Assembly (NCBI GenBank): GCA_039588275.1
Contig: JBDHAC010000052.1
Span: 1-26,594, forward strand
Direction of reading: 5' to 3'
Source of the DNA: Gemmatimonadota bacterium
GTDB lineage: Bacteria; Gemmatimonadota; Gemmatimonadetes; Palauibacterales; Palauibacteraceae
Length of the DNA stretch: 26,594 nt
Position 1 is the first letter of the stretch, and each line of letters begins with the position of its first letter. Of this stretch, positions 21,811 to 26,545 are shown in pieces. Made by a program: the position numbers and the translations under genes. The notes under the pieces were generated by a model, which was not told where the DNA came from, did not search any database, and saw only the letters and a program-made list of their open reading frames with translations.

Positions 21811-23076
21811 CTAGAAGTCCCTGATCAGATCGATGCGGCCGCTCGCGTCGACGCGGTAGAGCGGTCCTTGTAGGATATCGTTGCGGAGCGGCAGCTTGGG
21901 GGATCGCGCGAGCCCCGAAGCGGCGAAGGGCACCGTGTATTCCTCGGCGGCGGTCAAATCCACTTCGTATCCCATGTCACCCAGCGACGCTACGGTGACG
22001 ACGCTGAGCGGGTTCGGTCCGTCGTCGACGAACCCGGTCATCAGCTCCGACCCCATTACGCGCTCGCGCCAATGTACGAAGCGCGTTCCGCCCCCGCCCT
22101 CGTCTTCGACCGGCACCTTCTTGCTCACGAGCGGCTCGCCGCCAGCCGCATCGAAGGCCGCGCGGGCCTGAGGGCCGGTGAAGTGTGGGTCTTCGCCCTG
22201 CGCGCCGCTCGTCTCGGCGACCAGGCCGAGATCATCCCACAGCCCGCCGATCCCCAAAACGTGCCCCATCTCGTGCACGATGATCTCGTCCAATCGGCCG
22301 GCCAACTCGAGGTCGAGGAGATCCTCGGAGTCGAACCGCATTCGGCCGATCAGCGGTAGCCCGTTCGCGCTTCGAATCACACACGGTCCGGCAGAGCCGA
22401 GCACGCCGCCGCGGCCGTCGATAGCGACCACATCGGCCAGAATCAGCAAGTCGTCGATCGTCTCGTCGATGGGCTGCGAGGATCCACAGAATCCGGTGTC
22501 TTCGTTAATCGTGATATCCGTGAGATCGCCGGAGATCACGGCTTGCCAGCGTGCCTCGGCCACGCGGAACGCCTGTTGCTGCTCGGTGGTCGGGTTTCCC
22601 GCATTGAAGCGAACCACGATGTCGTATACGGCGGGCGGAATCGTGCTGACCGCGAAGAAGAAGATGGGGGCGACGCCGTCTACTCGCGCGCGCAGACGGT
22701 GCGTACCCGGGTCGGGACCGAGCGTCCAGCTCCCGGCGTTCGCCAGGCCGTCCACATCCGTCACGGCGGAGGGTCTCGTGACGGTGCCCGCTCCGGCGCC
22801 CGGCTCGAAGCTCACCTCGACCGCGGCAACGGGGTCGCCACGGCCGTCCACCACGCGCACGGTCGGTGATGCGTCCAGGGGGCGCCCGGCGATCCCGGTC
22901 TGGTTCGCGCCCTGAACGACCTCCAGCGCTGCCGGCACGCCGGCCGGCGGCGCCGGAGGCTGGTTACCGCCGTTCGGCTCGGTGGTGCCCCCGCAGGCGG
23001 CGCCGAACAGAGCGGCAAGCACGATCAATTGGGACGCGCGAATCGGGTTCTGATGCGCGTTCATCGGTGACGGCAC
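21811..23076 (-). CDS. Leishmanolysin-like (M8) zinc metallopeptidase lipoprotein with an N-terminal Ig-like domain
   Basis: Lipobox-like FGAAC; Ig-like VRVVDGRGDPVAAVEVSF..TDVDGLA..WTLG; IDGRGGVLGSAGPC, HEMGHVLG, HWRE, ELMTG Met-turn. Confidence 0.88.
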   Translation of the reverse strand: MPSPMNAHQNPIRASQLIVLAALFGAACGGTTEPNGGNQPPAPPAGVPAALEVVQGANQTGIAGRPLDASPTVRVVDGRGDPVAAVEVSFEPGAGAGTVTRPSAVTDVDGLANAGSWTLGPDPGTHRLRARVDGVAPIFFFAVSTIPPAVYDIVVRFNAGNPTTEQQQAFRVAEARWQAVISGDLTDITINEDTGFCGSSQPIDETIDDLLILADVVAIDGRGGVLGSAGPCVIRSANGLPLIGRMRFDSEDLLDLELAGRLDEIIVHEMGHVLGIGGLWDDLGLVAETSGAQGEDPHFTGPQARAAFDAAGGEPLVSKKVPVEDEGGGGTRFVHWRERVMGSELMTGFVDDGPNPLSVVTVASLGDMGYEVDLTAAEEYTVPFAASGLARSPKLPLRNDILQGPLYRVDASGRIDLIRDF

Positions 23077-23195
23077 GACTCCTCATGAAAAAGCCTACGA
23101 TCGGGCTGTTATACACCGGTCGGCGCTCCTGTGCCGCCATCACCCCAATTCACTCACCCGTCTCAAGATCGGAGCAGAGCGGGATGAACCGCACA

Positions 23196-23987
23196 TCAAG
23201 CCTCGCCCGGCTTGGACGCCGTCAACATGACCGCCTTGACCCCGTACGCCTCGGCGGCGTTCTGCGTCGACTCCTTCCGGAATCGGAATCGCGGCACCAC
23301 CGCGGACCGCACCTTCTCGAAACCGGACTCCTCGAGCAGTCTGAACATCTCTCCTTCCAGGAGAGCGCCCCCGATTCAGGCCGCCCACAGCCTGGGATCG
23401 TTCACGATGGATTGTGACAGCTGCTTGGCGCTCACGATATCGGTGATCGATATGCGACCGCCGGGCCTCAGCACCCGAAACATCTCCTCCACGACCTTGC
23501 GCTTCTGGAAGGACAGGTTGATCACGCCGTTCGAGATCACGACGTCGACGCAGGCGTCCGGGAGCGGGATGTCTTCCATGCGGCCCTCGTGGCACTCCAT
23601 CGACGAGCCGCCGGCTGCCGCGTGTGCTTGCGCCTTCAGACACATAGACGGGTTGAGGTCCACGCCGATCACTCTGCCGGTCGGACCCGTGCGCCTGCTC
23701 GCGACGATCGCGTCGAGACCGGCCCCGCTTCCCAGATCGAGTACGGTCTCGCCCGGCTGAATGTCCGCGCGCAGGTGCGGATTTCCCACGCCCGCGAAGG
23801 AGTCGACAGCACCCGGCGGCGCGCGGTCGAGCCACTCCGACGGATACTCGAACAGCTCGGCCGCCTGGCGTCCGTGGTAGAAATGGAACTCACCGGACGG
23901 ATCGTCGGCGACTTCTTGGTACATGCGAATGATCTCGTCCTTGAGCACTTCTTCCAAGGAAGCTTGCGCGGCCGCCGCATCGGTCAT
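23196..23987 (-). CDS. Selenocysteine-containing ArsM/AS3MT-like SAM-dependent methyltransferase (263 aa, Sec204 encoded by TGA at 23378-23376)
   Basis: SFAGVGNP, PGETVLDLGSGAGLD, VVISNGVINL, RVLRPGGR, then LWAA-TGA-IGGALLEGEMFRLLEESGFEKVRSAVVPRFRFRKESTQNAAEAYGVKAVMLTASKPGEA* (stop at 23198-23196). The TGA sits at the Cys of the ArsM W-x-x-C-I-x-G-A motif, and a SECIS-like hairpin follows. Confidence 0.88.
23342..23378 (-). promoter_or_regulatory. Bacterial SECIS element candidate
   Basis: mRNA UGAAUCGGGGGCG-CUCUCCU-GGA-AGGAGAG-AUGUUCA. A perfect 7-bp upper stem (23365-23349) starts at +11 after UGA, with G in the apical loop at +18/19. UGAA can also pair with UUCA as a lower stem. Confidence 0.75.
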
Positions 23988-23989
23988 TG

Positions 23990-24493
23990 TCAGCTCTCCT
24001 CTGATCGCTCTGCCGTGTCCGGGTTGGACTGCTCTATGTGATTCAGGCGCGAGATCCCGCCCCGCCGGCTCATCGCCGACGACTCGACCAACCGGCGGAA
24101 ATCCTCGTCGGAGCCTTCCAGAAATGCCGAGCCGTACCTCTCCAGGTCGGCTCGCAGATGTCGGAAGCCATCGCGCGGATCGTCCGAGAACCCGGGATAC
24201 TCTCGGGGCGCCCTCGATCCTGCCACGGCGTCGACGTATTCCCGGTGGGCCAGCGATACGTGTCCAACGTGGTATCTCACGAGTCCCAGCGAGCGGCGAT
24301 AATGGAGCTCCAGCCTCCGGCTCCCACGCGTGTAATCGGCGCGCGTGTAGTGACCACCGGATCCCCTACCCGCATCCCCGGCCAGGAAGCGGAAGCCGGC
24401 GGCCTCGAGAACGGGGTCGAGCACCTCGCGTCCGAACGCGAGCAGACTCTCAGGATCCGCTTCCCCGCCAGATCGCCCGCCGGGCTGAATCAC
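23990..24493 (-). CDS. Hypothetical protein
   Basis: GTG start overlaps the upstream stop (GTGA); stop lies 2 nt before the ArsM-like ATG; protein-like GRGSGG..RRLELHYRRSLGLVRYH..YPGFSDDP. Confidence 0.65.
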   Translation of the reverse strand: MIQPGGRSGGEADPESLLAFGREVLDPVLEAAGFRFLAGDAGRGSGGHYTRADYTRGSRRLELHYRRSLGLVRYHVGHVSLAHREYVDAVAGSRAPREYPGFSDDPRDGFRHLRADLERYGSAFLEGSDEDFRRLVESSAMSRRGGISRLNHIEQSNPDTAERSEES

Positions 24494-25113
24494 CTGCGGA
24501 AGACGCCGTACACGAACGCCTGCTTGGCTCCCGAAGGCGTCGAATGTAGCTCCTCGGTCGCCTCCAGTAGCGTGAGCTCGGACCCTAGCTCCTCCGCCAG
24601 CGCTTCGGGCGAGTAGCGGACGATGTCCAGCCCACTGCACCTCGGTGGCCCATCGGGCCCGAACGTGGCGACGATGGCGTGGCCGCCGCTGTCCAGGGCG
24701 CTCAACAGACTGCTCACGTACCTGCGGCGGTCCTCCGGATCGGTAAGAAAGTGAAACACCGCCCGGTCGTGCCACACATCCCACCGGTGCGGCAAGTCAA
24801 ACCTCGTCACATCCGCCTCGAACCATTCCACCAATCGCGCCTGCTTGCCGAGCCGATCCTTCACTCGCGCGAGGGCTTCCGAAGCGACGTCGAGGACGCC
24901 AATCGAACGATATCCGAGATCCAGGAGGTGATCCGTCAGGAGCGACGCGCCGCCGCCCACGTCCAGCACACGCTGACTCAGGTCGCCGCGGGTCACCGCC
25001 TGGGTGAGTCGTATCGAGAGCTCCGGGTTCGCTTGATACCAGCTGACCTCGTCCGGCTCTCGCGTTTCGTAGATGGTCTCCCAGTGGGCCTTCCGTTCCT
25101 TCAGGTCGGGCAT
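24490..25113 (-). CDS. Class I SAM-dependent methyltransferase (TPMT/TehB-like)
   Basis: HWETIY..VSWYQ, VLDVGGGAS, WHDRAVFHFL, ATFGPDGPPRCSGL, HSTPSG..QAF; GGAGG RBS. Confidence 0.85.
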   Translation of the reverse strand: MPDLKERKAHWETIYETREPDEVSWYQANPELSIRLTQAVTRGDLSQRVLDVGGGASLLTDHLLDLGYRSIGVLDVASEALARVKDRLGKQARLVEWFEADVTRFDLPHRWDVWHDRAVFHFLTDPEDRRRYVSSLLSALDSGGHAIVATFGPDGPPRCSGLDIVRYSPEALAEELGSELTLLEATEELHSTPSGAKQAFVYGVFRR

Positions 25114-25261: not shown

Positions 25262-25879
25262 CTAGACCGGTGTCGCGGTGCCCCAGTAGTTGAAGCTGCC
25301 CGGGCGCCATCCAGGAATGTACATGGTGTCCAGATCGCGGATACGAAACCCGCCACCCTCGATGAGCTTCGGGATCGGGCGGTTGAGGTTGCACCCGCCT
25401 CCGAGCCGCCTCCAGATCGGGTTGAGGCGCTCTTGCCAGCGTCTGACGCTCGCGTCCGGCGCCACCCCATGCTCACAGAAAATCAGCTGACCCCTAGGCT
25501 TCAACACCCGAGCCATCTCCTGTAGGGCGGGTCGAGTCTCCGCGATGGTGCACAGGGTGTAGGTCACCAGCACCGTGTCCACACTCCCCGCCTCTAGCGG
25601 GATCTCATCCGCCGGCAGACCGATGAACTCGACCTCGAAACCCACGGGTCGCGCGGCACGCTGTGCACGCTTGGTCAACTCTGGCGAAGGCTCGAGACCC
25701 CAGAGCCTGGTCACCTTCGCGGCATCATAATACGGCAGGTTGAGACCGGAACCGATCCCGATCTCCAACACCCGCCCCTCGGCGAGCGGCACGACCTTCT
25801 CTCGCTGGCGCATGGTCGGCTTCGCGCTGCAGGCCATGTGTACCAGCCCGGGTAGGATGCACTTGCTGTAGAGTCCCAT
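25262..25879 (-). CDS. Class I SAM-dependent methyltransferase (METTL7/TMT1-like; MddH-like thiol S-methyltransferase candidate)
   Basis: GRVLEIGIGSGLNL, GLEPSPEL, SVDTVLVTYTLCTI, RVLKPRGQLIFCEHG, WRRLGGGCNLNR. Confidence 0.85.
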   Translation of the reverse strand: MGLYSKCILPGLVHMACSAKPTMRQREKVVPLAEGRVLEIGIGSGLNLPYYDAAKVTRLWGLEPSPELTKRAQRAARPVGFEVEFIGLPADEIPLEAGSVDTVLVTYTLCTIAETRPALQEMARVLKPRGQLIFCEHGVAPDASVRRWQERLNPIWRRLGGGCNLNRPIPKLIEGGGFRIRDLDTMYIPGWRPGSFNYWGTATPV

Positions 25880-25883
25880 GGTC

Positions 25884-26545
25884 TCACGCCCCCGGCACAC
25901 AAACGTCCAACACACTACGCAAATCGGGAATCGACGGGCTCGTCTCGTCCCGATCCGGCCTACGCTTCACCAGGACCGCCTGAAGACCGGCGTGGCGCGC
26001 GCCTTCGAGGTCGTCCACGATCGAATCGCCGACGTGCAGGGTTCTCTCCGGCGGGACGCCGAGCCGGCGGCAAGCCTCGTGGAAGATCTCGGGCTCGGGC
26101 TTGGCGAAGCCGATCTCCGCCGATGCAATTACGTGGTCCAACAGGTCGCCGATCCCGAGATCCGCGCAGAAATGCGCCAGCCCGCATTGCCAATTGGAGA
26201 CCAGCGCCACGTGGAAGCCCCGATGCGCCAGAGCTCCGCGGCATGATCCGCGGCGGCCCGACCCGAGACCCGGACATTGAGCCGGTCGAACACCAGCTGC
26301 GCGAAGCGATCCCGATGTCTCTTCCCCGGTTCGCCCGATTGGGCGGGGGAGTACTCACGGGCATGGGGCTCGAAGATATCGTACAGGATCTGGTGCTCCC
26401 ACGGATCAGATTCGAGCCCCGCGCGTTGAAGGTACTCCATCAGCATCACGCCACGACCGCGCCCGGCGCGGGGATACACCAGCGTATTGTAGAAGTCGAA
26501 CGTGACGGCCTCGATGTTCTCGTACGTCTCCAGCCATGCGTTCAC
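25884..26545 (-). pseudogene. HAD-superfamily hydrolase (subfamily IA, REG-2-like) split by a frameshift/deletion at ~26220
   Basis: Motif I TFDFYNTL is in frame 26545-26129. Motifs II-IV (ALVSNW, AKPEPEIF, HVGDSIVDD) are in frame 26210-25884. Junction reads ELWRI|GFHVALVSN. Confidence 0.8.

Follow-up and report, generated by a model that had tools for sequence, protein, structure and literature searches.

The window analysed here is a stretch of 26,594 nucleotides on a contig of a Gemmatimonadota bacterium. From about 5960 to 26545 it carries a long series of short unrelated genes, nearly all on the minus strand. Repeats, integron-like or otherwise, were sought across the window without revealing a convincing family or one that would suggest cassettes. 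The gene of interest is read from an ATG at 23987 (Table 1). Its frame runs through 203 codons to a TGA, continues for 59 further codons and closes with a second TGA. The residues flanking the first TGA are LWAA on one side and IGGALLEGEMF on the other, and the C-terminal end reads ASKPGEA. The initial annotation had proposed that this first TGA encodes selenocysteine (Sec) in a 263-residue (263-aa) ArsM-like methyltransferase, with a SECIS hairpin just downstream, and had seen no other convincing gene in the space of the tail. The ORFs crossing this region (23212-23760 (+), 23140-23835 (-) and 22866-23417 (+)) resemble the shadow frames of GC-rich sequence. A promoter and terminator scan of 22900-24700 returned neither.

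Table 1. Features of the read-through gene and its surroundings (positions in the window)
Feature	Position	Strand	Description or basis
Read-through CDS	23196..23987	-	263-aa class I SAM-dependent methyltransferase, ArsM-like fold, predicted Sec at 204
In-frame TGA, codon 204 (predicted Sec)	23376..23378	-	Opposite CmArsM Cys224 in alignment; TGA in orthologs
Bacterial SECIS core	23349..23365	-	7-bp stem and GGA triloop, loop 17 nt 3' of UGA
59-codon tail past UGA	23199..23375	-	pN/pS and structure model
True stop codon (TGA)	23196..23198	-	Ortholog frames end 55-67 codons past UGA
SAM-binding motif I DLGSGAG, residues 84-90	23718..23738	-	Sequence and profile search
Val67, replacing CmArsM Cys72	23787..23789	-	Alignment; Val in 80/80 orthologs (best 80 of 187)
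Gly154, replacing CmArsM Cys174 (SNGV for SNCV)	23526..23528	-	Alignment; Gly in 80/80 orthologs (best 80 of 187)
Cys116 (23640-23642) and Cys132 (23592-23594), invariant pair	23592..23642	-	Clade-specific, non-ArsM positions
Shine-Dalgarno-like AGGAG, 8 nt 5' of ATG	23996..24000	-	Direct reading of sequence

The AlphaFold2 model of the 263-aa protein has a mean pLDDT of 95.9. In this model the tail forms a helix (211-220), a strand (224-230), a second helix (239-248) and a second strand (251-258). Two more SAM-dependent methyltransferases are encoded upstream on the same strand (25262-25915 (-) and 24490-25113 (-)); the product of the former presumably resembles TMT1/MddH-type thiol methyltransferases and that of the latter is taken to be TPMT-like. 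Across 81 loci, these two families are represented at just 3 and 4 respectively. The downstream gene, 21811-23076 (-), combines a lipoprotein-like start, an Ig-like domain and an M8 (leishmanolysin-type) peptidase domain.

Orthologs were collected in two sets, which probably overlap and whose counts are kept separate. Among the sampled relatives, 19 of 60 carry an ortholog (76-88% identity), with TGA at codon 204 in all 19. The second set comprises the best 80 of 187 matching stretches in a genome collection, mostly labelled Gemmatimonadota. All of these 80 (77-88% identity) also have TGA at codon 204. Their tails extend over 55-67 codons and end with TGA (45), TAG (26) or TAA (9). Over codons 217-258 pN/pS is 0.22, close to the 0.17 of the head, and by this comparison the tail evolves under purifying selection. 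The expected conservation of the tail among homologs is thus observed, as is that of Cys opposite the UGA: the site aligns with Cys224 of CmArsM, and a sister clade of Cys-codon homologs from metagenomes has TGC or TGT there in 80 of 80 sequences. The terminal TGA was also considered as a second Sec codon and discarded, since only 10 codons follow it and the orthologs (best 80 of 187) use all three stops.

The hairpin CTCTCCT-GGA-AGGAGAG begins at the eleventh base after the UGA and has a predicted folding energy of -14.5 kcal/mol. Bacterial SECIS elements are defined in the available text of PMC13188914 by a stem of 4-16 bp, a loop of 3-9 nt with a G in the first two places, a distance of 16-37 nt from the UGA and an MFE of at most -7.5, and the window hairpin lies within all four ranges. 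Its stability was rejected as a proof of a SECIS because the folding energy alone is not significant against shuffled sequences (z of -0.31, -1.67 and -2.14 for 49, 36 and 100 nt). Of the 91,848 genomic TGA trinucleotides, 378 (0.4%) are followed at a similar spacing by a perfect stem of at least 7 bp with a G-loop, and in 35 of these it is a GG loop of at most 4 nt. The orthologs are more informative. In the best 80 of 187, pS is 0.108 in the hairpin codons compared to 0.62 in the head, and codons 208, 209 and 212 are fixed in 80, 80 and 79 sequences, while none of 89 other conserved degenerate codons reaches 95% fixation. In 88 distinct sequences (orthologs and Sec paralogs) the stem positions pair in 99.5% of 616 cells, 27 of which have changed on both sides, compared to 53-74% for slid control positions; a shuffle test of this pairing is inflated by the kinship of the sequences. 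None of 80 Cys-codon homologs forms even 6 of the 7 pairs. The SECIS proposal is therefore well founded, on compensatory changes, frozen synonymous sites and absence from Cys-codon homologs. The closing U-A pair is replaced by C-G in 17 of the 80 orthologs (best 80 of 187), which turns Leu210 into Pro. At codons 210-211 the RNA pair thus appears to outweigh residue identity.

The genome (4.1 Mb, 85.8% complete, 66.7% GC) encodes the Sec machinery whose presence had been anticipated. Profile searches identified selA (531.1 bits), selB (364.1), selC (75.7) and selD (377.4), all above cut-off. All 19 relatives bearing an ortholog have selA, and 17 of the 19 have selB. This co-occurrence is uninformative because nearly all relatives have sel genes (selA above cut-off in 59 of 61 genomes).

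From these comparisons, Sec is almost certainly inserted by read-through at codon 204. It is the comparative evidence and not the hairpin energy that decides this, and the recoding itself appears ordinary and well supported. A real stop, arising from a nonsense mutation, a pseudogene or a sequencing error and leaving a product of 203 aa or a dead gene, would agree with the gene callers, which terminate the protein at this TGA, and with the unremarkable energy of the hairpin. It is nevertheless very improbable: it would require the same lesion in all 80 orthologs (best 80 of 187) in front of a tail under selection, and truncation at codon 204 would strip the last two strands from the predicted fold. 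Moreover, a public contig, which may derive from the source sample itself, is identical to the window over 23115-23459 (0 differences). In contigs from three DNA runs, no piece of which spans the stretch, none of the differences listed falls at 23376-23378. A genome-wide reassignment of TGA to Trp or Gly would need no special recoding, and Trp does occupy the site in two database proteins known by their protein sequence alone (P0003 and P0291); among 150 representative homologs Trp is found in 1 and Gly in 2. P0291 carries three further odd changes around the site, and for this reason we read both cases as probable translation-table or sequence artefacts. Reassignment is contradicted by an intact RF2 (522.6 bits) and by the interchange of terminal stops among the orthologs (best 80 of 187). 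In addition, tRNA-Sec is the only tRNA with a TCA anticodon found in the genome and Cys occupies the site in homologs, so that the probability left to reassignment is negligible. Truncation by standard annotation, foreseen from the start, is seen in nearly all of the database matches listed: in 119 of 120, among them the product of the window itself, coverage of the query stops at 77%, and the tail is sometimes annotated separately as a hypothetical protein of 48-58 aa.

The description of the product as ArsM-like holds for fold and ancestry. The Foldseek top match of the model is CmArsM (4fr0, TM 0.69, 33% identity), and the closest solved structures are all ArsM/AS3MT (CmArsM 4fr0, CrArsM 5evj, human 8xt7). 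It does not extend to a shown arsenite activity because the other arsenic-binding cysteines, a point missed by the initial annotation, are absent. In the alignment to CmArsM, Sec204 stands at Cys224 while Val67 and Gly154 replace Cys72 and Cys174, and both replacements occur in all 80 orthologs (best 80 of 187). The first Cys of the protein is residue 116. His35 and His38 are invariant in the same 80 orthologs. Cys116 and Cys132 are also both Cys in all 80 (best 80 of 187), at positions where Leu and Phe prevail in distant homologs; they possibly form a clade-specific structural disulfide. ArsM calls in PMC5552862, in its available text, required at least three of the four cysteines 44, 72, 174 and 224, of which the window protein has the 224 site alone, as Sec. 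The protein scores 205.1 bits with the canonical ArsM profile NF008823, below the curated cut-off of 263, and its best NCBIfam match is PRK11873 (E 1.4e-60).

These features define a wider group. We call SNG the proteins with Gly at position 154 and SNC those with Cys. All 15 full-length single-domain SNG proteins score below the NF008823 cut-off (179-232) and all 13 SNC proteins above it (273-358); scores below the cut-off were likewise obtained for three SNG fusions and for the truncated product. Among the 150 representatives, 76 have Cys and 66 Gly at position 154, the other 8 being without class. The 76 Cys154 proteins have Cys at 204 in 75 cases, with 1 not covering the site and none ending there. 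The 66 Gly154 proteins have Cys at 204 in 32 cases, end at the site in 21, have other residues in 5 and do not cover it in 8. The 21 that end at the site are probably UGA truncations. A quick IQ-TREE of 86 rows (84 chosen by hand and two from the genome, midpoint rooted) separates 55 SNG from 31 SNC rows with an SH-aLRT of 99, a split to which the SNG/SNC-defining columns themselves contribute. By these sequence criteria, the window protein falls within a branch of the ArsM superfamily, here termed the one-Cys/Sec branch, in which the Cys224 site alone is kept. In one database protein (P0123, 608 aa) three domains are fused: CMD, a canonical ArsM with three Cys, and an SNG domain ending at the Sec position.

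The class itself is not new. Selenoproteins named arsenite (S-adenosyl)methyltransferase have been catalogued since 2007-2008, with 8 GOS sequences in PMC2398784 (2008), and again in PMC9312934 (2022). In the available part of PMC13188914 (2026) the family is listed under "experimentally verified", citing Fomenko et al. 2007, with the motif UxxG, one Sec and WP_011987699.1 (PRK11873/NF008823) as representative; algal homologs of the ArsM-like selenoprotein appear in PMC2375036 and PMC7539508. We place the window protein in this family by its UxxG motif and PRK11873 match. It has the same single Sec, in UIGG, at the Cys224/Cys206 site, but its clade is mostly labelled Gemmatimonadota and is stored as 203-aa products. 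Canonical ArsM/AS3MT share the fold, the SAM motif and the Cys224 site; unlike them, the window protein has Val at Cys72, Gly at Cys174 and a score under the NCBIfam cut-off, and its gene has no arsR or acr3 nearby. The fusion selenoproteins NF041537 (ArsM/AhpD), NF041536 (ArsM/DUF2284) and NF047649 (MTase/UXPK-star), for which PMC13188914 also lists UxxG in its available part, share the methyltransferase domain from profile position 11-12. However, they carry 2-3 Sec, while the window protein has neither a C-terminal partner domain nor a second Sec and scores below all three cut-offs (199/510, 175/575 and 179/460 bits respectively). The NF041537 scores of SNG (164-239) and SNC proteins (166-214) overlap. 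What is added here is that the SNG branch keeps the Cys224 site only, as Sec in this clade, and by its sequences differs from canonical ArsM. A literature search, mostly without subscription papers and therefore weak evidence of absence, turned up no account of the one-Cys/Sec branch or of a link to sulfur. The word methyltransferase does not occur in the BSepDB main text and part of one supplement, nor are methyltransferases mentioned in the main text of the Haft and Gwadz preprint.

Gene neighborhoods were compared with a single query set for all locus counts. Most of the sulfur queries derive from loci of the sister clade and those for ars genes were taken from the window genome, so that each count is biased, and related loci are not independent. 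Neighbor families were named by Pfam (53 ORFs picked from clusters), except for one sulfur query whose SQR-like label is our assumption. The orthologs have no conserved neighbor or operon, no family occurring in more than 6 of 81 loci. Their loci (best 80 of 187) contain ArsR-like genes in 1 of 80 cases, acr3/arsC in none and sulfur-relay genes in 8. At 20 canonical ArsM loci, selected from homolog matches among relatives, the counts are 13, 4 and 0, and at 80 loci of the Cys sister clade 11, 0 and 36. The sister-clade sulfur genes include DsrE (19), metallo-beta-lactamase/rhodanese (23-24), class-V aminotransferase (5) and TusA (1). At 17 in-order SNG paralog loci we counted ArsR-like genes at 2, acr3/arsC at 2 and sulfur-relay genes at 4; a canonical ArsM adjoins one paralog. 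In a Sec-form paralog clade a DsrE-family gene lies nearby at 4 of the 17 loci (L042, L043, L046, L244). At two loci (L239, G011:C21; L247, G010:C32) one SNG methyltransferase of the Cys form and one of the Sec form stand about 600-700 bases apart on one strand, with an ECF sigma-like gene upstream of the pair in G011. Fusions among 25 hand-picked long homologs involve TusA (3, 2 over cut-off), thioredoxin-like (2), class-V aminotransferase (desulfurase-like, 1), DUF2652 (5), MerC-like (2, 1 over cut-off), ArsR-type (1) and CMD with canonical ArsM (1). The sister clade is 40-46% identical to the window clade and its place relative to it is not fixed by the tree. Since the window clade has no conserved neighbor of its own, the sulfur link is borrowed from this sister clade.

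The substrate is probably something other than arsenite because the other cysteines needed by arsenic-methylating enzymes are missing. We propose that SelB and Sec-tRNA would bind the GGA-loop hairpin and place Sec at codon 204 of a 263-aa SAM-dependent methyltransferase. The lone selenolate beside the SAM site might then form Sec-Se-S or Sec-Se-Se by capturing one chalcogen atom, whose source could be sulfane sulfur, hydrosulfide, selenide or a small thiol. The bound chalcogen would be methylated by SAM, and a cellular thiol or thioredoxin would free the methylated product. Methylative removal of reactive sulfur has precedents in TPMT (PMC13089183) and in MddH/MddM (PMC11445057, PMC12904073), as far as the available text of these papers goes. 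MddH, MddM1/2 and TMT1A/B would share the SAM-dependent S-methylation chemistry but are described as UbiE/UbiG-type enzymes of about 200 aa, and the available text of PMC11445057 and PMC12904073 does not mention a link of H2S/methanethiol S-methyltransferases to ArsM; they are set apart here by description.

This sulfur or selenium role is favored over an organoarsenic or His-assisted arsenite role and over other metal(loid)s or thiols. Nevertheless, the whole statement, which joins Sec read-through, the one-Cys/Sec branch and sulfur/selenium methyltransferase activity, is put forward tentatively, as a plausible reading of the sequences. The enzyme might instead methylate arsenic through one chalcogen ligand, either as a finisher acting on DMA(III) or single-thiol organoarsenicals or as an arsenite methyltransferase in which His35 and His38 replace the cysteines. 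The ArsM/AS3MT structural matches, the two invariant histidines and the P0123 tandem fusion would fit, as would the acr3/arsC-like genes and the adjoining canonical ArsM among the SNG paralogs. DMA(III) is held by a single cysteine in AS3MT (PMC3877260), and TtArsM of Thermus thermophilus methylates arsenite using one Cys and two His (PMC8649762, available text), although it is described as very divergent, with its Cys at position 77. However, human AS3MT C156S is inactive on both arsenite and MMA, the two steps assayed (PMC3877260, available text), ars genes are nearly absent from the ortholog loci, and two canonical ArsMs are already encoded in the genome, an ArsR-like gene immediately preceding one of them. 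An arsenic role is therefore rather unlikely. Slightly less likely again is a Sec methyltransferase whose substrate is another soft metal(loid) (Hg, Sb, Te) or a metabolite or protein bearing a thiol, and in which Sec would bind the substrate or carry the methyl group transiently: the varied fusions (MerC-like, DUF2652, ArsR-type and CMD) and the unconserved ortholog neighborhood would suit it, but the top ortholog-neighbor clusters, judged by eye, include no recurrent metal-resistance family and sulfur-relay genes dominate the sister-clade neighbors.

Returning to the sulfur/selenium reading, many bacterial "selenoprotein ArsM" might not be arsenic enzymes but belong to a separate and widespread one-Cys/Sec branch whose substrates are sulfane sulfur, sulfide or selenide, methylated via a Sec-bound intermediate, an extension that is slightly more doubtful than the proposal for the window protein itself. 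If true, sediment Gemmatimonadota would make methanethiol, dimethylsulfide or methylselenides by a route that has gone unrecognised, since annotation ends the protein at its active-site UGA. The gene is common in this phylum (187 matching stretches), and its stored products lack the active-site residue and the final 59 residues. They are often named arsenite methyltransferase, and arsM counts from sediment metagenomes would be inflated as a result. Judging from its sequences, the branch is likely misnamed. With three-Cys ArsM and the one-Cys/Sec branch split in this way, the function of the catalogued ArsM-like selenoproteins can be tested directly, and the branch can be assayed because Cys homologs occur in named Halomonas species.

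Other selenoprotein candidates are present in the genome. Its selD gene also has a TGA in frame, and behind this codon lies a stem of 9 bp with a GGA loop. A strict scan, which used a codon-usage filter and is not exhaustive (selD was missed), gave five candidates, all with GGN triloops: the window gene, three CxxU proteins, which we take to be AhpD-like, and one on C24. The further candidates in this genome (G000) lie at C28:37334 (+), C35:12298 (-), C46:22518 (+), C24:1391 (-) and C30:37365 (-) and comprise the three CxxU proteins, the one on C24 and a UxxC protein on C30.
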